From: an uncultured Bacilli bacterium
GTDB taxonomy: Bacteria; Bacillota_I; Bacilli_A; RF39; UBA660
Length of the DNA: 64,000 nt
Direction: 5' to 3'
Assembly (NCBI GenBank): GCA_934155005.1
Contig: CAKPGR010000002.1
Location: 21,415-85,414 of the forward strand
Below, one piece after another: positions 5,656-61,286 of the stretch. Both the position numbers and the translations under genes were made by a program. The notes beneath the pieces were generated by a model. The model searched no databases. It was not told the DNA's origin and saw only the letters and a list, made by a program, of their open reading frames with translations. Numbering within the stretch: the first letter of the stretch is position 1; each line of letters starts with the position of its first letter.

Positions 5656-6486
5656 TCATTTAATTCTTTTATACATATAAACTGTTATATATGGATTTTG
5701 CACTGAAAAAGACGTTCCATTACAATTTGTACATGCTGTTGTTGATAAAGTTGTTCCAGTAAAAGTACTTGTAACTTTTCCGCTTGGTGTATAATAGTGT
5801 TGATGGTTACCTGGATTATCAGTATATACATTATCCTTAGCAGAATAACCACCTCCAAACCAAGGACCCCAATGTTGTGAACTTAAGTCGCTAACATACA
5901 TTCCTAAGCCTGATTCAAGGCGATAATTATAGCCATCATATTCACCACCGTATATTCTATGTGTATGACCTCCACTTCCTTCTGTTAAAGCTCTATTTCC
6001 ACTAAAACTAGAACTAATATTTCCTTTTGGTGTATATGTATGACTGTGACTTGGAAGATTTGAAGTTGTAAGTGTTGTTGTACTACTTCCTCCTGTCTTA
6101 CTTACTGTGTTAAAATTAGTATTACTTGTGTCTACTCCAACTAATGTCTTTCCTGTTCCATATGCTTCCCATGTCCCACCAAATTTTTTAGCTATATCAT
6201 TAGCTGTTGTTATATTCGTTGAAAGATATATACTTCCAACAGGGTACATTTCATTTAACATATCGCTTTTTAATGAATTAATTTCTTTTTTTAATTCATC
6301 ATATTTATCAGCTATACTATATAGTTCATCTAGTGAATTTTGAAGTGTTGCATCACTTCCTAAATTAGATCCTGTTGGAGCATTTACTGATATTCCATTT
6401 GCATAAAAATTACTTCCTGCATATACTCCAACACTTCCAAATATTAGTCCACCTATTATTATTCCTAGTATTATCTTTTTATTCAT
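5656..6486 (-). CDS. Family member 1: Sec-signal N-module (A) plus tail-fibre-like C-module (T) with three HxH motifs
   Basis: MNKKIILGIIIGGLIFGSVGVYA signal, SNLGSDATLQNSLDELYS motif, YPVGSIY...GGTWEAYGTGKTLVG...LPSHSHTY, GHTHRIY, NHQHYY, ending QNPYITVYMYKRIK. Preceded by the poly-G leader cassette. Confidence 0.75.
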   Translation of the reverse strand: MNKKIILGIIIGGLIFGSVGVYAGSNFYANGISVNAPTGSNLGSDATLQNSLDELYSIADKYDELKKEINSLKSDMLNEMYPVGSIYLSTNITTANDIAKKFGGTWEAYGTGKTLVGVDTSNTNFNTVSKTGGSSTTTLTTSNLPSHSHTYTPKGNISSSFSGNRALTEGSGGHTHRIYGGEYDGYNYRLESGLGMYVSDLSSQHWGPWFGGGYSAKDNVYTDNPGNHQHYYTPSGKVTSTFTGTTLSTTACTNCNGTSFSVQNPYITVYMYKRIK

Positions 6487-6619
6487 TTTTATCTACTCCT
6501 TTACACAAAAAAAAGAGGGTTTTATACCCCCCCCCGACTTTGAAATTTTTTTATCTCTCAGTCAATATTATTATTTTGCTTTACATACCCATTTTAACAA
6601 ATATCTTTTATTTTTTCAA
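6487..6619 (-). promoter_or_regulatory. Poly-G leader cassette, copy 1 (promoter plus ~95-nt 5' leader)
   Basis: -35 TTGAAA at 6614-6619, 17-nt spacer, extended -10 TGTTAAAAT (-10 at 6591-6596), invariant core, C9 (+ strand) at 6527-6535, GAGGG/loop/C-run hairpin plus U8, AAGGAG SD, ATG 6486. Confidence 0.7.
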
Positions 6620-9200: not shown

Positions 9201-9231
9201 AAAAAAATATTGAAACTAAGTCAATATTTTT
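9201..9231 (-). terminator. AT-rich hairpin terminator after family member 2, overlapping its stop codon
   Basis: Coding strand reads TAAAAAATATTGA-CTTAGTT-TCAATATTTTTTT, a 10-11 bp stem. The paralogous site at 31846-31871 carries a compensatory G/C swap. Confidence 0.5.
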
Positions 9232-10226
9232 TACTTTATTATTGATTTTGAGACTGTTATTACTGGACGAACACCGATACCAGTAAGGCTAACAGTACCG
9301 CTACCCAAACGACCGTCCTTACCCACACTCCACGCACTAGAAGAGTAGCTTATATTCGCATTACTTGTCCAATATCCCCATGTGTCTTGATCAGCATTAT
9401 TTAAACATCCATAGTCTTTACAGTCACTTCTTGTTCTATCATATAGCCAGCCATAATTACTTCTTTTACTTGTATCACTTTGATTACTACTTCCAAAATA
9501 AAACCATGGTTGCCCTATTTTACTTGCATCCCAATTTACATTATTTGATATTTTAGCCACTTCATTTGCTGTGATTAAACGAGCTGCATTTTTCCAGTCT
9601 TTTGTATCATTTTTTAACTGTGTAGCTACTTCTTTCATTTCACTATTACTTTCACTTGAATTCCATGCTACACGAGCTGTTGTATTATGGTCTAATATTA
9701 AATTAACGGATGAAGCCCCTTCTTCATCATTAAATGTATACCATTTCATACATCCACTCTTTGTTCCTGTTGAGCTTACTGATTCACTTTTACTACCTTT
9801 TTCTCCTGTTGTTGGATTATAGTATATAGCTGTTCCATTTTCATATTTCTTTTTTACACTTGATTTTATTGCTTTTCCATTTGTTACTATATAGTTATCA
9901 AACGTTAAATCATATCTTGTTACATTACCTTTACTTATTACTACAACTCCATTACTTGGAGTACTTCCTTTTACTGATATTCCTAAGCTTTTTAATTCTT
10001 CTACTGAATAAGCTCTATCTTTAAACTTACTTGCCGTTGTATCAACTTCATTTATCATTACTTGTTTTTCTATGGCATCTATATAACCTAAAGCTGATGA
10101 CTCTGCTGCTCCTTTTTTAGCTTTTTCTATTACTCCTAATATTGTTGGAGTTGCAATTAATACAATTATTGCTAGTATTACTATTACAGCTAGTAGTTCT
10201 ATTAAAGTAAAACCTTTTTTATTCAT
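9231..10226 (-). CDS. Family member 2: prepilin-type N-module (B) plus DUF1566/Lcl-like Cys-containing C-module (D)
   Basis: MNKKG|FTLIELLAVIVILAII is a class III signal with Glu at +5. C-terminal part has YYNPTTGEK, GCMKWYTF, RLITANEVAKIS, SDCKDYGCLNN, GYWTSNA and GVRPVITVSKSIIK. Preceded by the cassette. Confidence 0.75.
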   Translation of the reverse strand: MNKKGFTLIELLAVIVILAIIVLIATPTILGVIEKAKKGAAESSALGYIDAIEKQVMINEVDTTASKFKDRAYSVEELKSLGISVKGSTPSNGVVVISKGNVTRYDLTFDNYIVTNGKAIKSSVKKKYENGTAIYYNPTTGEKGSKSESVSSTGTKSGCMKWYTFNDEEGASSVNLILDHNTTARVAWNSSESNSEMKEVATQLKNDTKDWKNAARLITANEVAKISNNVNWDASKIGQPWFYFGSSNQSDTSKRSNYGWLYDRTRSDCKDYGCLNNADQDTWGYWTSNANISYSSSAWSVGKDGRLGSGTVSLTGIGVRPVITVSKSIIK

Positions 10227-10359
10227 TTTATCATTCCTTCCTATACAAAAAAAGAGGGTTTTGTACCCCCCCCCCGACTTTGAAATTTTTTTATCTCTCA
10301 GTCAATACTATTATTTTGTTTTACATACTCATTTTAACAAATTAACTATTTTTTTTCAA
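10227..10359 (-). promoter_or_regulatory. Poly-G leader cassette, copy 2
   Basis: -35 TTGAAA at 10354-10359, 17-nt spacer, -10 TAAAAT at 10331-10336, core with one substitution (CAATACTATT), C10 at 10266-10275, GGAAGGA SD, ATG 10226. Confidence 0.7.
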
Positions 10360-16833: not shown

Positions 16834-18012
16834 TCATCTTTTAATTATCTCTTTTACTTTATTTAATTGATTTTCTAATTCATCCATTTCAGCTATATTA
16901 GTTTCAAGTGACTTAAATTCTGACTCTATATCTATTATTTTTTTTATATATTCATATTGAATAGTATATTCTGATTCTAATGTTAATGTTAGGTTTGATA
17001 AAATGCAATTGTTTTTAAACTCTTTCATTTTATTAAAATATTCTTGACTTAAATATTCTAATTTTTTTATGGCTTTCTTTTTATTTTCACAATCTATATT
17101 CAATTTTTCTACGTTATCTTTTGTTTCTATTACAAGTTTTAGCACTCTATCTTTCACTACTATATTTTTTGGTTCTATACTTTCTGACTTTATATTTTCT
17201 GATTCTATTTTTGGAGTAGTAATGTATTGACATAAATCCATTTTAAAAGTGCTATTTAAAAATTTAGACATATTACTATTTTCAAAATCTCCGTTATTAA
17301 AATAATCATCACAAAGATATTCTATTCCAGAAAAAAGAATTTTTTCACTAATCATGATATTTTCATTTTCATCAACAATCCATTTAACTGGTTCAACTTT
17401 CATCCAAACTTCAACATTTTTATCATTAAATGAGCCATCATTACTACGAATTTTAGCGTTGTGAAGAACAACCCTTACATATTTTTCTTTTTTATATTCA
17501 TATACATCAAAATAAGGGTAGTTAATTTTAAAAGTTCCATCTATTTTTTTTAAAAATCTAAGTTTTCGTTTCTTATAAAGTTTTTCTAGTTTATTATGAA
17601 GTGGAGGATAAATTTGATGTTGTGGATAAAAGCCATATTCTACCTCAATAACTCCGTCATCTGCTCTTTTAATTATCCCGTCATTTGTAGGAATATTGTC
17701 TATTGATAAAATTTTTAAGGCTGGACGAACTCCTGTCCCATAAGGTATGTAAAAATTATGATTAGGTCCTAAGCCTCCTAAATTATCAATAGAAATAAAC
17801 TCTCCATTCTCAGTTAAATCACTTGTTAAATATTCTCCCTTTCTACTTTCAAACTTTTTATTTTTAGTTTTATCATAATTATTAAATAAATCTTCTAATC
17901 CTAAAAATACAGAAAAATCTGTTGATGTTGCTATTACTCCTCTTTTTTTTAAAACTTCTAATTTGTTAGGGCCATATAATTGCTCTAGTCTTAAAAGCGT
18001 AAATTCATTCAT
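16834..18012 (-). CDS. Hypothetical protein, no signal peptide, C-terminal coiled coil
   Basis: 392-aa intact ORF. The N-terminal region ends in YGTGVRPALKILS, reminiscent of the GVRPVITV end of the D-module. The C-terminal half is Lys/Glu-rich and helical. Confidence 0.5.
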   Translation of the reverse strand: MNEFTLLRLEQLYGPNKLEVLKKRGVIATSTDFSVFLGLEDLFNNYDKTKNKKFESRKGEYLTSDLTENGEFISIDNLGGLGPNHNFYIPYGTGVRPALKILSIDNIPTNDGIIKRADDGVIEVEYGFYPQHQIYPPLHNKLEKLYKKRKLRFLKKIDGTFKINYPYFDVYEYKKEKYVRVVLHNAKIRSNDGSFNDKNVEVWMKVEPVKWIVDENENIMISEKILFSGIEYLCDDYFNNGDFENSNMSKFLNSTFKMDLCQYITTPKIESENIKSESIEPKNIVVKDRVLKLVIETKDNVEKLNIDCENKKKAIKKLEYLSQEYFNKMKEFKNNCILSNLTLTLESEYTIQYEYIKKIIDIESEFKSLETNIAEMDELENQLNKVKEIIKR

Positions 18013-18134
18013 AAAAACACCTCTTTTTGCTCTGGTATTATAACACCTTTTTCCCTATTTATCAATTTTTTTTGACTTATTCCTATTGTAAAAAAATTAA
18101 AATAAGTGTACTATTTAATTCAGAGGTAAATTAT

Positions 18135-29476: not shown

Positions 29477-30553
29477 CTATTTAACTTTGTTAATACATAT
29501 TTTATTACGTCCATTTGCTTTAGCATAATATAGATTATCATCAGCATGTTTAATCATACTATCAATATCTTTAAAATCTTTAAGTGCTGCTACACCACCA
29601 CTTATAGTAATTTGTCTATTATCAGACTCGATTTTAACATTATTCATTATTTTCTTCCTGATCTTCTCAGCTAATGCATATGCAGTTGAACTTGTAGTAT
29701 TAGGCAAAATAAGTAAAAATTCTTCTCCTCCATAGCGTGTTAAAATATCATTATATCTAAGACAAGAATTAATAGTCACAGCAATTTGTTTTAAAATAGC
29801 ATCTCCCACTTGATGTCCATATGAATCATTTATTTTTTTAAAATAGTCTATATCAAACATAACAATAGATAAAGTTTCACTATTTTTTAATTCATTCAAT
29901 TTTTGATCCATATATTTTCTGTTCCAAATTCCAGTAAGTGAATCTATAACAGAAATTTGATTTAAATATTTATTTAATTTTTGTAATTCTGATCTTTGTC
30001 GTTCATTTAATCGTAATATTGCAAAAAAACATAACCCTAATGATATACTCATCAAAAATAATGACATCATATTTTCTATCATAAACATTTGATGATCAAT
30101 GTTAAAATTATTATTCAAAAAATCTATTATCATAACAAGTGAATAAATTACAATCTCTAAGGTTAAGCAAAATATTTTCTCACCATTAGAAAAGTGTATT
30201 AATATAAATGTTAAAATTATTGATGGTAAAAAATAATAATAGACACAATAATCAAATCCACCACCATAGAGATAAAAAATCGATAAATATATAATATTCA
30301 CAATCAACATAAAAATTTGACATTTTTGAATTTTCTTTTTTATGTTAATGTATAAGAAAAAGGAAAAATTTATTAATATATATATTAAAGAAAAAATCGT
30401 ATATTTAATATTTTGCACTAAAAAATAATGTGAAAATAAATCAAAAAAAGCAAAACCACATATAGCAAGGGATATGGAATTAAAAACTTTAATATTCATT
30501 TCTCTGTCAAATCCAAATTTTTCGTTAATTTTCTTTTCAACTTGTTTTAACAT
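29477..30553 (-). CDS. Membrane-bound diguanylate cyclase (GGDEF domain)
   Basis: About 6 N-terminal TM helices, a coiled linker, then DSLTGIWNR...FDIDYFKKINDSYGH...RYGGEEFLLIL. Confidence 0.85.
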   Translation of the reverse strand: MLKQVEKKINEKFGFDREMNIKVFNSISLAICGFAFFDLFSHYFLVQNIKYTIFSLIYILINFSFFLYINIKKKIQKCQIFMLIVNIIYLSIFYLYGGGFDYCVYYYFLPSIILTFILIHFSNGEKIFCLTLEIVIYSLVMIIDFLNNNFNIDHQMFMIENMMSLFLMSISLGLCFFAILRLNERQRSELQKLNKYLNQISVIDSLTGIWNRKYMDQKLNELKNSETLSIVMFDIDYFKKINDSYGHQVGDAILKQIAVTINSCLRYNDILTRYGGEEFLLILPNTTSSTAYALAEKIRKKIMNNVKIESDNRQITISGGVAALKDFKDIDSMIKHADDNLYYAKANGRNKICINKVK

Positions 30554-30708: not shown

Positions 30709-30785
30709 TGGCGTCCTCGATGTGATTTGAACACACGACCTATCGCTTAGGAGGCGATTGCTCTATCCAACTGAGCTACGAAGAC
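30709..30785 (-). tRNA. tRNA-Arg (anticodon CCU), CCA encoded
   Basis: Manual fold of GTCTTCGTAGCTCAGTTGGATAGAGCAATCGCCTCCTAAGCGATAGGTCGTGTGTTCAAATCACATCGAGGACGCCA. 7-bp acceptor stem with one G-U, anticodon loop CUCCUAA, T loop TTCAAAT, 77 nt. Confidence 0.9.
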
Positions 30786-31750: not shown

Positions 31751-31845
31751 TTCCTTATTAGTAATGATTACTAATAAGATTATATCATATTAATATAACA
31801 TAGTAAATATGATAATAATAATTTTATCATTAAACATTATATAGC

Positions 31846-31871
31846 AAAAAATATTCAAAAATGAATATTTT
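31846..31871 (-). terminator. AT-rich hairpin terminator after family member 4, overlapping its stop codon
   Basis: Coding strand reads TAAAATATTCA-TTTT-TGAATATTTT-TT. Paralogous to 9201-9231, with a compensatory change (TTGA/TCAA becomes TTCA/TGAA). Confidence 0.5.
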
Positions 31872-32865
31872 ATTTTATTATTGATTTTGATATTGTTATT
31901 ACTGGGCGAATACCATTATCAGCACTACTAACAGCATGGTCGACTAAATTACCAAACCTATTCACATTCCATGTACTATATGAAACACTTATATTTGCAT
32001 TACTTGTCCAATATCCTCCTGTGCCTTGATCGGCATTATTTAAGCAACCATAATTCTTACAATCGCTTCTTGTTCTATCATATAGCCATCCATAATTACT
32101 TCTTTTACTTGTATCACTTTTATTATTACTTCCAAAATAGAACCATGGTTGTCCTGTTTTACTTGAATCCCAGTTTGTATTTCCTGATATCTTAGCGACT
32201 TCATTTGCAGTTATTAATCTAGCAGCATTTTTCCAAGCTTTTGTATCATTTTCAAGCTCTCTCGCTACTTCCTTCATTTCACTATTATTTCCACTTGAAT
32301 TCCAAGCTACACGAGCTGTTGTATTATGGTCTAATATTAAGTTTACTGAACTATTTCCTTCTTCATCATTAAATGTATACCATTTCATACATCCGCTCTT
32401 TGTTCCTGTTTTACTATCAGATTCACTTTCACTACATTTTTCTCCTGTTGTTGGATTATAGTATATAGCTGTTCCATTTTCATATTTCTTTTTAACACTC
32501 GATTTTATTGCTTTTCCATTTGTTACTATATAGTTATCAAATGTTAAATCATATCTTGTTACATTACCTTTACTTATTACTACAACTCCGTTACTTGGAG
32601 TACTTCCTTTTATAGTTATTCCAAGATTTTTTAATTCTTCTACTGAATAAGCTCTATCTTTAAACTTAGCTGCATTTGTATCAACTTCATTTATCATTAT
32701 TTGTTTTTCTACAGCATCTATATAACCTAGAGCTGATGATTCTGCTGCTCCTTTCTTAGCTTTTTCTATTACTCCTAATATTGTTGGAGTTGCGATTAAT
32801 GCGATTATTGCTAGTATTACTATTACTGCTAGTAGTTCTATTAGCGTAAAACCTTTTTTATTCAT
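31870..32865 (-). CDS. Family member 4: prepilin-type N-module (B) plus DUF1566/Lcl-like C-module (D)
   Basis: 331 aa, collinear with member 2 (roughly 85% identity by eye). MNKKG|FTLIELLAVIVILAII; ends GIRPVITISKSIIK. Preceded by the cassette. Confidence 0.75.
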   Translation of the reverse strand: MNKKGFTLIELLAVIVILAIIALIATPTILGVIEKAKKGAAESSALGYIDAVEKQIMINEVDTNAAKFKDRAYSVEELKNLGITIKGSTPSNGVVVISKGNVTRYDLTFDNYIVTNGKAIKSSVKKKYENGTAIYYNPTTGEKCSESESDSKTGTKSGCMKWYTFNDEEGNSSVNLILDHNTTARVAWNSSGNNSEMKEVARELENDTKAWKNAARLITANEVAKISGNTNWDSSKTGQPWFYFGSNNKSDTSKRSNYGWLYDRTRSDCKNYGCLNNADQGTGGYWTSNANISVSYSTWNVNRFGNLVDHAVSSADNGIRPVITISKSIIK

Positions 32866-33001
32866 TCTATCATTCCTTTCAAAACATTAAAAAAAGAGGG
32901 TTTTTTACCCCCCCCCCGACTTTGAAATTTTTTTATCTCTCAGTCAATATTATTATTTTGTTTTACATACTTATTTTAACAAATTAATTTTATTTTGGCA
33001 A
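32866..33001 (-). promoter_or_regulatory. Poly-G leader cassette, copy 4
   Basis: -35 TTGCCA at 32996-33001, 17-nt spacer, -10 TAAAAT at 32973-32978, invariant core, C10 at 32908-32917, ATG 32865. Confidence 0.7.
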
Positions 33002-33007
33002 TATATC

Positions 33008-34060
33008 TTATTCTGTTATTGATGGAGTTTGATTAATTGGCTCTATTTGAATAAATGTATTACCATCATTTACCTTAATTTCATTACCATCATTATATTT
33101 ATAAATTGTTTTACTACTTCTTGAATCTTTTTGCCAAGTTATAGGTCTAGCATATCCATTAGTTATATAATATCCAGAACCACTTCCTACATTATTCAAA
33201 GATTGTCTTCCGTATGAATCAATATTATAATTTTCAACTTTAATGATAATTATATTTTTATAATGATATTGTAATCCTGTAATATAATCTTTATGTTCTA
33301 TTCCATTTGCATACCTTAAATAATATTTATTAGTAGCATCATATACATATGAAGAAGTCATATAATTTGAATACGGAATGACAACATTATTAGCAACCAT
33401 ACTATCTTCATTTTCGTTTATATTAACTTCTTTACTACTATAATTAAATAATAATTCTTGTTTTACATTTTTACTTTTATAATCTGTTCTATAATTTTTT
33501 GAAGAAATAGCATTATTAATTTTTTCCATATTAGTTACTGCTTTATGTTCATAACTAACAGGTAATTTTAAATCTCTCCAAAAAGCATCATCATAAAGAC
33601 CATTTATATTATTAACGCCTAATGCTGACATATCACTTTGTGCTTGTGGACTCCAACCATAATGAACATATATAGCGTCATTTTCAAGAGCATAATCTAA
33701 AAAATAATGTCTACTACTTCTAACAGAACCTATTCTTTCTGTTGTTTGATCTTTAAAAACAGCCATCAATCTAGTAATACCACCTTCAACAATAATTTCA
33801 TATGTAACAAAAGCATCTTGAAGTCCTGAATGATATGGTCTTGCCTGATTATGGTTATTTATCATAACCGCTACTGGTCTTTTAGTAGAAGATAAATCTA
33901 CAATTTGAAGTGTTGGTTCTTTTTTTGTTGTTTTTTTAATTTCATCTATTACATCTTTATTATCTAGATTAAAAAGAAAGTATGCACCTATTAAAGCTAA
34001 AACTAATAAAAGAAATAAAACAAATATTTTTTTCTTCTTTTTATTTTTCCTCTTTTTCAT
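33008..34060 (-). CDS. DUF3048 (YerB-like) extracytoplasmic protein
   Basis: N-terminal TM anchor, then PVAVMINNHNQARPYHSGLQDAFVTYEIIVEGGITRLMAVF, which I recall as the DUF3048/YerB signature. Confidence 0.6.
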   Translation of the reverse strand: MKKRKNKKKKKIFVLFLLLVLALIGAYFLFNLDNKDVIDEIKKTTKKEPTLQIVDLSSTKRPVAVMINNHNQARPYHSGLQDAFVTYEIIVEGGITRLMAVFKDQTTERIGSVRSSRHYFLDYALENDAIYVHYGWSPQAQSDMSALGVNNINGLYDDAFWRDLKLPVSYEHKAVTNMEKINNAISSKNYRTDYKSKNVKQELLFNYSSKEVNINENEDSMVANNVVIPYSNYMTSSYVYDATNKYYLRYANGIEHKDYITGLQYHYKNIIIIKVENYNIDSYGRQSLNNVGSGSGYYITNGYARPITWQKDSRSSKTIYKYNDGNEIKVNDGNTFIQIEPINQTPSITE

Positions 34061-48143: not shown

Positions 48144-48716
48144 TTATGATGCATAGATGTCAGTTAGAGTAAAGCCATACCCTCCAATAAAGAAATTCCC
48201 GGCAACTCCCTCAAAGTTAAGCGTATATGTTCCTGTCGTTGAAGCTGTTTTATAAAACTCAGTACTACGATTAGCGCCAGTTGTTATTATTGTTGGCAAT
48301 GTACCATTAAAATCACACATTCCATATTGTACATAATTATTGGTCTCTGTTTTTATTGTAAAAGTAATTTTTGTTGTTCCATAAGGTATTTTAAAAACAA
48401 CACCACCAATCTCATTATTTGCTTTATTAGGATAAATAACTCCATTTCTTATATGAACTCCATAAAAATTATCAATATATAGTAAATATTTACTAGTTTT
48501 TGTTTCCAAACTCTTTATTCTTGTTTCTATTTTTTCATTATTATCAGCTATACTATATAATTCATCGAGTGAGTCTTGTAAAGTGGCATTACTTCCTAAG
48601 TTAGACCCTGTTGGAGAATCAATTGATACATCACTTGCATAAAATTTTGTCCCTGCATAGACACTTACACTACCTAATATTAATCCTATTATTGCTATTA
48701 TTAATTTCTTATTCAT
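48144..48716 (-). CDS. Family member 5: Sec-signal N-module (A), short coiled coil, unique beta-rich C-module (X)
   Basis: MNKKLIIAIIGLILGSVSVYAGTKFYASDVSIDSPTGSNLGSNATLQDSLDELYSIAD, then EKIETRIKSLETK, then about 115 aa with no similarity to the T or D modules. Preceded by the cassette. Confidence 0.7.
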   Translation of the reverse strand: MNKKLIIAIIGLILGSVSVYAGTKFYASDVSIDSPTGSNLGSNATLQDSLDELYSIADNNEKIETRIKSLETKTSKYLLYIDNFYGVHIRNGVIYPNKANNEIGGVVFKIPYGTTKITFTIKTETNNYVQYGMCDFNGTLPTIITTGANRSTEFYKTASTTGTYTLNFEGVAGNFFIGGYGFTLTDIYAS

Positions 48717-48848
48717 GTTATAACTCCTTTACACAAAAAAAGAAGGGTTTTTTACCCCCCCCCCGACTTTGAAATTTTTTTATCTCTCAGTCAATATTAT
48801 TATTTTGTTTTACATACTTATTTTAACAAATTAAATCTATTTTTTCAA
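48717..48848 (-). promoter_or_regulatory. Poly-G leader cassette, copy 5 (archetype)
   Basis: Coding strand: TTGAAA (48843-48848), 17 nt, TGTTAAAAT (-10 at 48820-48825), AAGTATGTAAAACAAAATAATAATATTGACTGAGAGATAAAAAAATTTCAAAGTC, G10 (48755-48764), TAAAAAACCCTTC, T7, GTGTAAAGGAG, ATG 48716. Confidence 0.72.
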
Positions 48849-60218: not shown

Positions 60219-60926
60219 TTACTTTATTCTTTTATACATATAAACTGTTATATATGGCTGTAAATTTGTAAATGATGTTCCTTGGCAATTTACACAACTT
60301 GTCGTTGTTCCACTATATGTATGGGTATGATTACCTAATGTACCCCATGTTGTATATGGATTAGATGTATCATAATTATGCCATACAAGTTGCCATTCAG
60401 AATTTGTAGGAGTTGCTGCTGGCCACGCTACATACTTACCAAAGTTAGAACTATTATCAGTTGTTCCGCTATATGTATGATTATGACTTGGAAGGTTTGA
60501 TGTTGTAAGTGTTGTTGTGCTACTTCCTCCTGTCTTACTTACCATATTGAAGTTTGTATCATTTATATCTACTCCAACTAATGTCTTTCCTGTTCCATAT
60601 GCTTCCCATGTTCCACCAAATTTGGTCGCTACATCAGATGCACTTTTTATATCTGTTGATATATAAATACTTCCCACTGGATACATTTTATCTAACATTG
60701 AATTTATTTTTGTACTTAATTCGTCATACTTATCAGCTATACTATATAATTCATCTAGTGAGTTTTGAAGAGTTGCATCACTTCCTAAATTAGAACCTGC
60801 AGGAGAATCTACTGATACATCACCTGCATAAAATTTTGTTCCTGCATATACACTTACGCTTCCAAATATTAATCCTATTATTATTCCAAATATATTCTTC
60901 TTTATTAAATTTAAAACTTTCTTCAT
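60219..60926 (-). CDS. Family member 6: Sec-signal N-module (A) plus tail-fibre-like C-module (T) with two HxH motifs
   Basis: Start set at ATG 60926 (AAAGGA SD); the track's TTG 60950 lies in the leader. SNLGSDATLQNSLDELYSIADKYDEL, YPVGSIY, GGTWEAYGTGKTLVG, LPSHNHTY, GNHTHTY, ending QPYITVYMYKRIK. Confidence 0.75.
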   Translation of the reverse strand: MKKVLNLIKKNIFGIIIGLIFGSVSVYAGTKFYAGDVSVDSPAGSNLGSDATLQNSLDELYSIADKYDELSTKINSMLDKMYPVGSIYISTDIKSASDVATKFGGTWEAYGTGKTLVGVDINDTNFNMVSKTGGSSTTTLTTSNLPSHNHTYSGTTDNSSNFGKYVAWPAATPTNSEWQLVWHNYDTSNPYTTWGTLGNHTHTYSGTTTSCVNCQGTSFTNLQPYITVYMYKRIK

Positions 60927-61026
60927 ACCATTAATCCTTTCTACATACAAAAAAGAGAGGTTTTGTACCCCCCCCCCCGACTTTGAAATTTTTTTATCTC
61001 TCAGTCAATATTATTATTTAATTTTA
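60927..61026 (-). promoter_or_regulatory. Poly-G leader cassette, copy 6 (5'-shortened)
   Basis: Invariant core present, C11 at 60968-60978, stem variant CCTCTC. TAAAAT at 61021-61026 overlaps the yneF stop. There are 13 nt fewer between TAAAAT and TTGACT, and no -35 match. Confidence 0.6.
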
Positions 61027-61236
61027 ATCCATATATTTACTCATTTGTTTCATCATTTGATTAACTTGCTTTTGACTAGGTGTTCTACCCATTCCCATCA
61101 TCATTGTTTTAATCATTTGTTCATTTATTGGTGGATTTTTCTTTAAATATTTTTGCATATATTTCTTTGCTAATAAAAATCCTATTACTAAGCCAATTAT
61201 TAAACCTACTATTATTAATAATATATCGTGTAACAT
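61024..61236 (-). CDS. yneF: UPF0154 (YneF-like) small membrane protein
   Basis: 70 aa, N-terminal TM, then [32 protein letters not shown], which is typical of the family. Confidence 0.8.
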
Positions 61237-61286
61237 ATAATCATCCTTTCTCGTTTATTATACTTTATTTTAAAATTTTATTCAAC

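Follow-up and report, generated by a model that had tools for sequence, protein, structure and literature searches.

The window analysed here is a 64,000-nucleotide stretch of a contig that is 137 kb long and derives from a human-gut metagenome of the Hadza, has a GC content of 26.5%, and contains six copies of a cassette, composed of a promoter and a 5′ leader of about 100 nt, which precede six minus-strand genes of a single modular family of putative surface proteins. An initial sequence-only reading of this DNA had placed both promoter and leader in front of all six genes; parsing of each copy reproduced the proposed coordinates and promoter motifs and located the leader in 6/6 cases and the promoter in 5/6, copy 6 being without one. 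The copy to which that reading had drawn attention, copy 5 (48717..48848, minus strand), opens with the −35 hexamer TTGAAA (48848-48843) and a TG-extended −10 hexamer TAAAAT (48825-48820), the site as a whole (48848-48820) scoring 10/12 with TG in a promoter scan. Its predicted +1 lies at about 48813 and is followed by the A-rich segment AAUAAUAAUAU (48804-48794), a hairpin here termed P1 (48793-48765), and a second hairpin consisting of a run of ten G residues (48764-48755), the loop UAAAAAA (48754-48748) and a pyrimidine arm with U tract (48747-48735), after which the Shine-Dalgarno (SD) sequence AAGGAG leads to the ATG at 48716. In the other promoter-bearing copies the layout is the same, with a −35 hexamer of TTGAAA, TTGTAA or TTGCCA, a 17-nt spacer ending in TG, the −10 hexamer TAAAAT and then the leader.

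These other copies, all on the minus strand, are copy 1 (6487..6619; −35 at 6619-6614, −10 at 6596-6591, P1 at 6564-6536, G9 at 6535-6527), copy 2 (10227..10359; G10 at 10275-10266), copy 3 (26726..26858; G10 at 26775-26766), copy 4 (32866..33001; G10 at 32917-32908), whose promoter begins 4 nt past the stop codon of a DUF3048 gene, and copy 6 (60927..61018; G11 at 60978-60968), so that the six G runs are 9, 10, 10, 10, 10 and 11 nt long. The U tract, which had been given as seven to eight residues, spans six to eight. Copy 6 has a twin in a second sample (L013) that is identical including its G11, and in both a 70-codon ORF for a YneF/UPF0154-like membrane protein (61030-61242, minus strand, in the window) stops 9 nt before the leader, the hairpin of which is probably the terminator of this ORF. 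Pfam assigned the flanking genes as frr, xfp, holA, hrcA, Fic, fur, DUF3048, uvrA, rpoC and nusG/secE, in agreement with the housekeeping neighbourhood previously described, and an 849-amino-acid gene upstream of copy 6 is gyrA/parC-like. The six family genes had also been taken to be monocistronic; an obvious hairpin and T run directly follow the stop codon in four of the six, and the claim is not established for the genes at 5656-6486 and 60219-60926.

A scan of the window with the 40-nt core GACTTTGAAATTTTTTTATCTCTCAGTCAATATTATTATT at no more than one mismatch returned six matches, at 6536, 10276, 26776, 32918, 48765 and 60979, all on the plus strand as written, which is the orientation expected for minus-strand genes, and none was obtained in 100 shuffles. 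As the sequence-only reading had it, five copies are identical and one has a single substitution; the mismatch is that of copy 2 and is located in the A-rich part (AAUAAUAGUAU). Mean pairwise identity among the six copies is 99.2% for the core, 68.8% for the promoter block, 68.3% for the discriminator/+1 block, 77.8% from the G run to the ATG, 65.5% for the first 180 nt of the coding sequence and 53.9% for the remainder, and it is thereby borne out that a non-coding core is better conserved than the genes it precedes. Selection or gene conversion had been offered as the cause, and this pair of explanations stands, but the two are not cleanly separated because every cassette-bearing contig retrieved (see below) belongs to one species-level lineage. 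The two-hairpin fold with its terminator-like second hairpin, the apparently hypermutable G run and the missing promoter of copy 6 go beyond what had been described.

The six products share a modular organization in which the coding sequences fall, as anticipated, into different domain classes. Prepilin-type N-termini (N_methyl, GFTLIELL motif) are present in 2/6, while 4/6 have a signal-anchor followed by a stalk of the form SVNAPTGSNLGS-ATLQxxLDELY; the C-termini are Gp10_C in two, DUF6273-like in three and unassigned in one. The gene downstream of copy 5 (48144..48716, minus strand, as are all that follow) specifies a 190-amino-acid protein with a signal-anchor, the stalk ATLQDSLDELY and a C-terminal domain of the third class, the members of which are without a match in Pfam or PDB. 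Copies 1 and 6 precede genes of 276 (5656..6486) and 235 (60219..60926) amino acids, each combining signal-anchor and stalk with a Gp10_C head of the phage tail-fibre/baseplate kind; this head matches PHROG tail and tail-fibre families as well as the C-terminal domain of T4 gp10, and the 235-residue product is about 35% identical to Streptococcus-phage tail proteins. Copies 2 and 4 precede prepilin-type genes of 331 amino acids (9231..10226, with the N_methyl N-terminus and a DUF6273-like C-terminal domain, and 31870..32865), and copy 3 a gene of 268 amino acids (25919..26725) that joins signal-anchor and stalk to the C-terminal domain of the pilin-type paralogues, to which it is about 77% identical over 78% of its own length. 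The DUF6273-like domain ends in RPVITVSKSIIK; its Pfam match is weak, with a single gene scoring 18.2 bits against a cut-off of 23.5 bits, and the label was carried over to the other two genes because of C-terminal identity of about 77%. Domain shuffling is apparent here, in that one and the same DUF6273-like domain occurs on a prepilin N-terminus (9231-10226 and 31870-32865) or on a signal-anchor-plus-stalk N-terminus (25919-26725). A search with the 77-amino-acid N-terminal module returned only six fragments. A GGDEF-domain protein that also matches the Cas10-Cmr2 palm2 family is encoded at 29477-30553 (minus strand), a few kb from two of the cassettes; pili under cyclic-di-GMP control are known in Clostridia.

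The association of leader and gene family was assessed in 241 kb of contigs (given L-numbers such as L002) from at least five samples, which were retrieved via the family proteins and GrpE, and in which all cassette-bearing contigs represent one species-level lineage at 97.9-100% identity. A covariance model built from 15 leaders and run over these 241 kb gave 22 hits at E≤3e-10, each directly 5′ of a family gene and on the same strand, and the leader was present at 22/22 family genes with an intact 5′ end. All 22 leaders are in gene orientation, and their ends lie 18-27 nt from the start codon, an arrangement opposite to a random scatter of position and orientation, while unrelated pilin-like genes are without a cassette. 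Cassettes occur at a density of approximately one per 10-15 kb. Such exclusive linkage, together with sharply bounded conservation, upholds the earlier proposal of a shared regulatory promoter and 5′-leader element before paralogous secreted-protein genes. In a sister lineage (L002, L010 and L011) pilin homologues of about 60% identity lack the cassette and share a different conserved upstream region, without hairpin or G run (L002:2736-3000; L010:9848-10000; L011:7529-7681), and the L002 pilin locus is syntenic (Mur ligase, Ddl, pilin) with that of the cassette-bearing L013; judged from these sequences, the family seems to carry lineage-specific 5′ regions.

The element could not be matched to a known leader, riboswitch or repeat family, as had been the case at first reading. 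Scanning of the whole window with Rfam 15 at gathering scores yielded only a tRNA (30712-30785, minus strand) and an L10 leader (RF00557, 57297-57411, minus strand, 65 bits, upstream of rplJ), and scans of two leaders at E≤10 gave only sub-threshold chance hits. There were 0 matches to a degenerate P1-plus-G pattern in viral contigs (IMG/VR) and 0 to two patterns in GTDB species representatives, a scan of JGI metagenomes produced one chance match in high-GC DNA, and blastn of the cassette against phage genomes returned nothing. The negative result with GTDB representatives may be due to assemblies breaking at the repeat. Independent assemblies do break in or next to a cassette or family gene (L016:1-95, L015:1-540 and L009:1-175), L016 beginning inside a leader, and the cassette repeat probably fragments metagenome-assembled genomes of the host organism.

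One strain comparison shows the cassette being gained or lost together with its gene. In a strain whose flanks are about 99% identical, the entire unit of cassette 4 plus pilin gene is exchanged for 1.9 kb of unrelated DNA (L014:1779-2961, equivalent to about 31826-33008 of the window between DUF3048 and fur, versus L017:1069-2960). The replacement encodes a small helix-turn-helix protein and a collagen-like (GXY repeat) protein, and fur is called shorter (84 amino acids) in the strain that carries it. In the window strain the DUF3048 gene lacks its own terminator and runs straight on into cassette 4, and in the cassette-less strain it possesses one; at this site, and at copy 6 after the small ORF, the leader terminator may also serve as an insulator. 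Upstream of some cassettes there is, in addition, an intergenic module of about 420 bp, 89-93% identical between L006:9440-9860, L003:10808-11224 and L008:6282-6660 and partial in L013 (16303-16541), which contains a hairpin terminator aattcctaatgccataggggtcattaggaatttt, its loop being G7 in L013, as well as a mini-ORF, some 30 codons long and very hydrophobic.

Alignment of the 16 main-type (type A) copies defines the limits of the conserved element. Sequence is random upstream of the −35, both hexamers are conserved, the 5 nt after the −10 vary, and conservation resumes at TGTAAAAC, the predicted +1, to end at the U tract; the loop of the second hairpin and the spacer preceding the SD are variable. 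Near the ribosome-binding site (RBS) the leader co-varies with the N-terminal class to which the gene belongs, but the block from +1 to the U tract is common to all classes. Every leader folds as a pair of adjacent hairpins; in the six of the window these are P1 and then a G/pyrimidine hairpin, with z-scores of −2.0 to −2.9. In the main type, the A-rich single-stranded start of the leader (GUAAAACAAAAUAAUAAUAUU) is followed by P1 with the sequence UGACU-GA-GAGAU-A6-AUUUC-AA-AGUCG. Five further types exist in which the interior of P1 is swapped wholesale for 6 to about 85 nt while the closing GACU...AGUC is constant; this interior measures 20 nt in the main type and 6 nt in type D, and it is unconserved between types. 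This variation in spacing rules out a fixed-spacing DNA operator, including P1 as a dimeric operator with GACU and AGUC as half-sites, and is compatible with an RNA hairpin.

The second hairpin is composed of G(8-11), an A-rich loop of 6-8 nt, a pyrimidine-only arm (CCCUC...) and then U6-8, and was flagged by a terminator scan, which found four such sites in the region against 0.2 expected. Its stem is calculated at −7.2 kcal/mol, or −12 when G-U pairs into the U tract are counted, and its stability is inside the range (−3.6 to −10.3) obtained upon folding of five local 3′ terminators, those of rpoC and four family genes. There are four haplotypes of the 3′ arm (CCCUCU, CCCUUC, CCCCUC and CCUCUC) and eight loop sequences, and every arm variant still pairs with G because all four haplotypes consist of pyrimidines. 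RNAalifold recovers both helices, with one-sided changes from G-C to G-U, and the fold, by virtue of its G-U pairs, is specific to the sense strand. Other functions considered for these segments were rejected: a reverse-strand terminator, as no U tract follows on that strand; a leader peptide, as the only AUG-UAA is at the extreme 5′ end and is unconserved (TTG in several copies); and an anti-SD role of the pyrimidine arm against AAAGGAG, which on paper forms 7 bp, is much weaker than the G hairpin and is absent with the pilin-type RBS.

Two divergent leaders are informative as regards structure. The paralogue leader at L009:9916-10003 has a P1 of GACU-UGGAAU-AGUC and no G run; after P1, GAUG pairs with the upstream UAUU so that P1 is extended to 8 bp, and in place of the G hairpin there stands an ordinary hairpin of unrelated sequence, GAGAAUG-GGAAAAA-CAUUCUC-AUUUUUAUU, with a z-score of −5.5. 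According to these folds, the hairpin structure is kept while the sequence is replaced. In the type C leader (L006:9843-10003) an 85-nt insert in P1 includes two C-rich segments (UUCCCCU and CAUCCCCUCCC), and the fold of minimum energy has the G run paired with CCCCUCCC of this upstream insert and not with the terminator arm, the insert being a possible built-in antiterminator.

The G run itself is distinctive, as the six cassette tracts are the only G/C homopolymers of at least 8 nt in the window. A run of G8-11 is present in 21/22 leaders, the exception being that of L009, and across assemblies 25 tracts were distributed as three of G8, four of G9, sixteen of G10 and two of G11. Not one of 242 G positions is interrupted, though a change from G to A opposite U would pair better. 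Between L003 and L004 there are 0 substitutions in 11.4 kb of aligned sequence (and 2 in another 18 kb from the same pair of samples), yet both tracts differ in length, from 10 to 9 and from 10 to 8, and are the only differences in those 11.4 kb. Similarly, the orthologue of copy 3 has G8 in strain L017, which is 99.15% identical over 8.8 kb, and G10 in three other assemblies, the only other indels in the 8.8-kb block being three single-base changes in shorter homopolymers. On account of this purity and length polymorphism the G run behaves as a hypermutable tract. It is not a promoter spacer of the vlp type, since the tract starts about 50 nt past the −10 and no acceptable −35/−10 pair brackets it.

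The explanation that best fits these observations, and to which we would give an even chance, is that a sigma-A promoter is followed by a promoter-proximal attenuator which doubles as a simple-sequence-repeat contingency switch. Each family gene would possess a private cassette consisting of a near-consensus sigma-A promoter (TTGAAA-17-TGnTAAAAT) and a leader RNA of about 100 nt, whose second hairpin would act as an intrinsic-terminator-like structure between promoter and RBS, such that most transcripts end at the hairpin and translation is confined to read-through RNA. Being a pure G run, the 5′ arm can be expected to pair with C or U in any register and to slip during replication, and tract length is proposed to change at high frequency because of this slippage. 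Altered length would modify both the invasion of the U tract by the stem and its abutment on P1, with read-through being reset gene by gene, and the repertoire of surface proteins, tail-fibre-like or pilin-borne, would thereby be mixed within a population. With P1 and the A-rich segment common to its members, the whole family could also be controlled by one trans-acting factor. The leader of each gene thus probably acts as a dimmer or an on/off switch of an uncatalogued kind. A more specific version of this scheme, a slippage-tuned attenuator, is put forward tentatively, namely that a hypermutable homopolymer forms the 5′ arm of the terminator, that its slippage sets the level of read-through, and that this applies to some 100 dispersed genes, a figure extrapolated from the density of about one cassette per 10-15 kb, possibly with a common trans-acting controller recognizing P1.

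A number of points weigh against such a slippage-dependent switch. Start site, termination and read-through alike are predicted. RNAalifold found two-sided covariation at 0/12 pairs, which is attributable to all copies deriving from one species-level lineage, and for the same reason gene conversion could explain part of the core identity; the case for the fold is built instead on the exchange of an entire hairpin and on arm substitutions confined to pyrimidines. Tract lengths represent the consensus of short-read assemblies, so that homopolymer error by Illumina sequencing or the assembler may explain part of the variation. The energy of the core stem is flat for n≥5, and an effect of length within G8-G11 therefore needs a subtler mechanism than stem stability; it could derive from the reach of G-U pairing into the U tract, from competition with the UAUU-GGGG extension of P1 or stacking on it, or from provision of a toehold for a trans-acting partner. 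The type A leader fold offers no antiterminator alternative, no trans-acting factor was found in the available 241 kb, which is part of the genome, and a strong promoter coupled to a strong terminator in every copy appears wasteful unless the short RNA has a use.

An alternative that we consider unlikely is that P1 and the A-rich segment are bound by one trans-acting factor which overrides the leader terminator family-wide, the G run being a convenient terminator arm whose mutability is incidental; an RNA-binding antiterminator, a LoaP-type NusG paralogue or a small RNA would be candidates, and this form of control may coexist with the repeat switch. Conservation at the level of sequence fits this idea, with GACU/AGUC invariant and the type A interior and A6 loop near-invariant in 16 copies, as does, by analogy, the order of promoter, hairpin and terminator, which is that of protein-dependent antitermination leaders such as the LicT/SacY ribonucleic antiterminator and LoaP leaders, and the predicted capture of the G run by the type C insert CCCCUCCC suggests that a partner other than the terminator arm can engage it. 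However, the interior of P1 is swapped wholesale in 6/22 copies, there is no candidate regulator or C/U-rich small RNA in the 241 kb (part of the genome), and both the uninterrupted G run and its length variation between near-identical strains are left unexplained.

The proposal that the cassette has no dedicated function, and is merely the 5′ end of a recently amplified unit kept identical through duplication and short-tract gene conversion, is improbable. It would agree with the confinement of cassette contigs to one lineage (97.9-100%) and the lack of the element in GTDB representatives and JGI metagenomes, with the evident recombination within the family, where a C-terminal domain is found on two N-termini and a unit is gained or lost between strains, and with the sharing of a further 420 bp upstream by some copies. 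Against this, identity is limited to about 60 nt and gives way to diverged sequence within 10-20 nt on both sides, the same boundaries recur at more than 20 loci and with three N-terminal gene classes, all substitutions in the hairpin arm preserve pairing, and hairpins persist when the sequence is replaced.

Somewhat less probable again is that the short RNA itself is the product, that is to say an RNA of about 85 nt with (AAU)3, hairpin and terminator plus U tail in an Hfq-type layout, gene expression being a by-product. In its favour, each copy that has the strong promoter has a credible terminator behind it, and the conserved block corresponds exactly to the predicted short transcript. It is difficult to reconcile with a perfect linkage in which the distance to the RBS is fixed and a single gene family is involved, and with two copies that retain the leader without a standard promoter (copy 6, and one in L005 that has only a weak overlapping promoter-like site), and no target complementary to the RNA was identified.

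A mobile or recombination element, be it a dispersed repeat similar to miniature inverted-repeat transposable elements (MITE) or repetitive extragenic palindromes (REP), an invertible promoter, or a recombinase site that shuffles gene cassettes, is very unlikely. In its favour are the scattering of copies between housekeeping genes, the strain-dependent presence of a unit and the breakage of assemblies at the repeat. Against it, orientation and distance to the start codon are constant, three copies tested have no consistent flanking inverted repeats, inspection of the single gain/loss junction showed neither direct nor inverted end repeats, the segment swapped there is a whole gene unit from promoter to terminator, and no recombinase gene occurs among the neighbouring gene calls. 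Of the individual forms, an inverton was discarded, as only copy-specific, AT-rich chance pairs were seen (three copies), and so was a MITE/REP dispersed repeat, given that 22/22 copies are in gene orientation at 18-27 nt from the start codon. A ligand-binding riboswitch can practically be dismissed: a P1-like helix does immediately precede a terminator, and an insert of 85 nt occurs in one variant, but the P1 interior is short and unconserved between types, no Rfam family matches even at E≤10, and the main type is without an alternative antiterminator pairing.

With respect to the host, sporulation genes (YabP, YabQ, SpoIIR and GerA) are present on neighbouring contigs, and among solved RNA polymerases the nearest to its RpoC is that of B. 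subtilis. From the same organism, L005 contains a complete 16S rRNA gene (17399-18957) and the start of the 23S gene (19162-20332); the 16S is only about 80% identical to Bacillus and Staphylococcus copies, a plasmid collection having been used as reference. Together the sporulation genes, RpoC and 16S point to a Bacilli-like Firmicute that is uncultured and branches deeply.

That simple repeats give rise to phase variation is textbook knowledge for Neisseria, Haemophilus, Campylobacter, Helicobacter and the Mollicutes; to our knowledge it is hardly documented in spore-forming gut Firmicutes, in which the known switches are DNA inversions. If the repeat switch proposed here operates, an abundant uncultured bacterium of the human gut would vary dozens of phage-tail-fibre-like adhesins or receptors singly, with bearing on colonization, immune evasion and interactions with phages or decoys. 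It would also mean that repeat-mediated switching can work via transcription termination, a route that we have not seen described, and, should the slippage-tuned attenuator be correct, that a gut commensal Firmicute has genome-wide combinatorial variation of tail-fibre-like and pilus-tip proteins. A compact RNA motif absent from Rfam would moreover become searchable in metagenomes and would explain why such genomes assemble poorly at these loci.

A limited and shallow literature search gave no precedent for a repeat that serves as a leader-terminator arm before a large dispersed family in a gut Firmicute, although several systems resemble it in part, and two of them (tlpB and uspA1) show that expression can be set by the length of a G tract lying outside coding sequence. 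In Helicobacter pylori a G repeat (7-16 G) within the tlpB-hp0102 5′ untranslated region (UTR) is paired by the small RNA RepG, and its length sets expression gradually and not in an on/off manner (PMC8295292). The cassette similarly has a length-variable G repeat in the 5′ UTR with a C/U-rich pairing partner; for tlpB this partner belongs to a small RNA acting in trans, of which it is the terminator loop, and control is exerted post-transcriptionally at a single locus (PMC8295292). Here, in contrast, the partner lies in cis, 7 nt downstream, as part of a terminator-like hairpin that is found before dozens of genes, and a scan of the window and the cassette-lineage loci, which are part of the genome, gave no intergenic C/U-rich candidate for an RNA of the RepG kind. 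In Moraxella catarrhalis the length of a G(n) tract upstream of uspA1 affects the mRNA level, which in strain 195ME is low with 8-10 G and high with 11-12 G (PMC7302503). The two systems have in common a tract of G8-12 outside the coding region of an adhesin gene, whereas uspA1 is a single gene in a Gram-negative organism. We know of no terminator hairpin or conserved companion hairpin described for uspA1. Among Firmicutes, the cwpV and flgB switches of Clostridioides difficile rely on DNA inversion by RecV and on termination inside a long leader (PMC5914908, PMC7446863). As is proposed for the cassette, surface-structure variation in these cases acts after the initiation of transcription, yet the cassette has no flanking inverted repeats in the three copies inspected.

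Other parallels lie with the surface-protein families of the Mollicutes and with the leader of B. subtilis pyrG. The vlp genes of Mycoplasma hyorhinis, as Rosengarten and Wise (1991, a reference listed in PMC11868660) are said to have described, form a cluster of lipoprotein genes with a poly(A) tract in the −35/−10 spacer and a conserved signal sequence, and their independent switching reportedly gives rise to combinatorial surfaces; the vsp and vpma families of the Mollicutes are similar. Shared with vlp are a low-GC host, a surface multigene family with one transcription unit per gene, a conserved 5′ region and a homopolymer, but in the cassettes the tract is poly(G), lies about 50 nt past the start site and is contained in an RNA hairpin, the genes are dispersed among housekeeping genes, and their products are membrane-anchored or prepilin-type proteins with phage tail-fibre-like heads. 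In pyrG, according to work ascribed to Meng, Turnbough and Switzer in 2004, polymerase slippage reportedly adds a 5′ poly-G at low CTP, which acts as an antiterminator. There, as here, a poly-G RNA segment is paired with a leader terminator's C/U-rich strand, use being made of the fact that G can pair with C as well as with U; the poly-G of the cassette, by contrast, is encoded in the DNA and would itself constitute the 5′ arm of the terminator. Although it is not a member of any catalogued family, the element resembles a repeat contingency switch joined to a leader attenuator.

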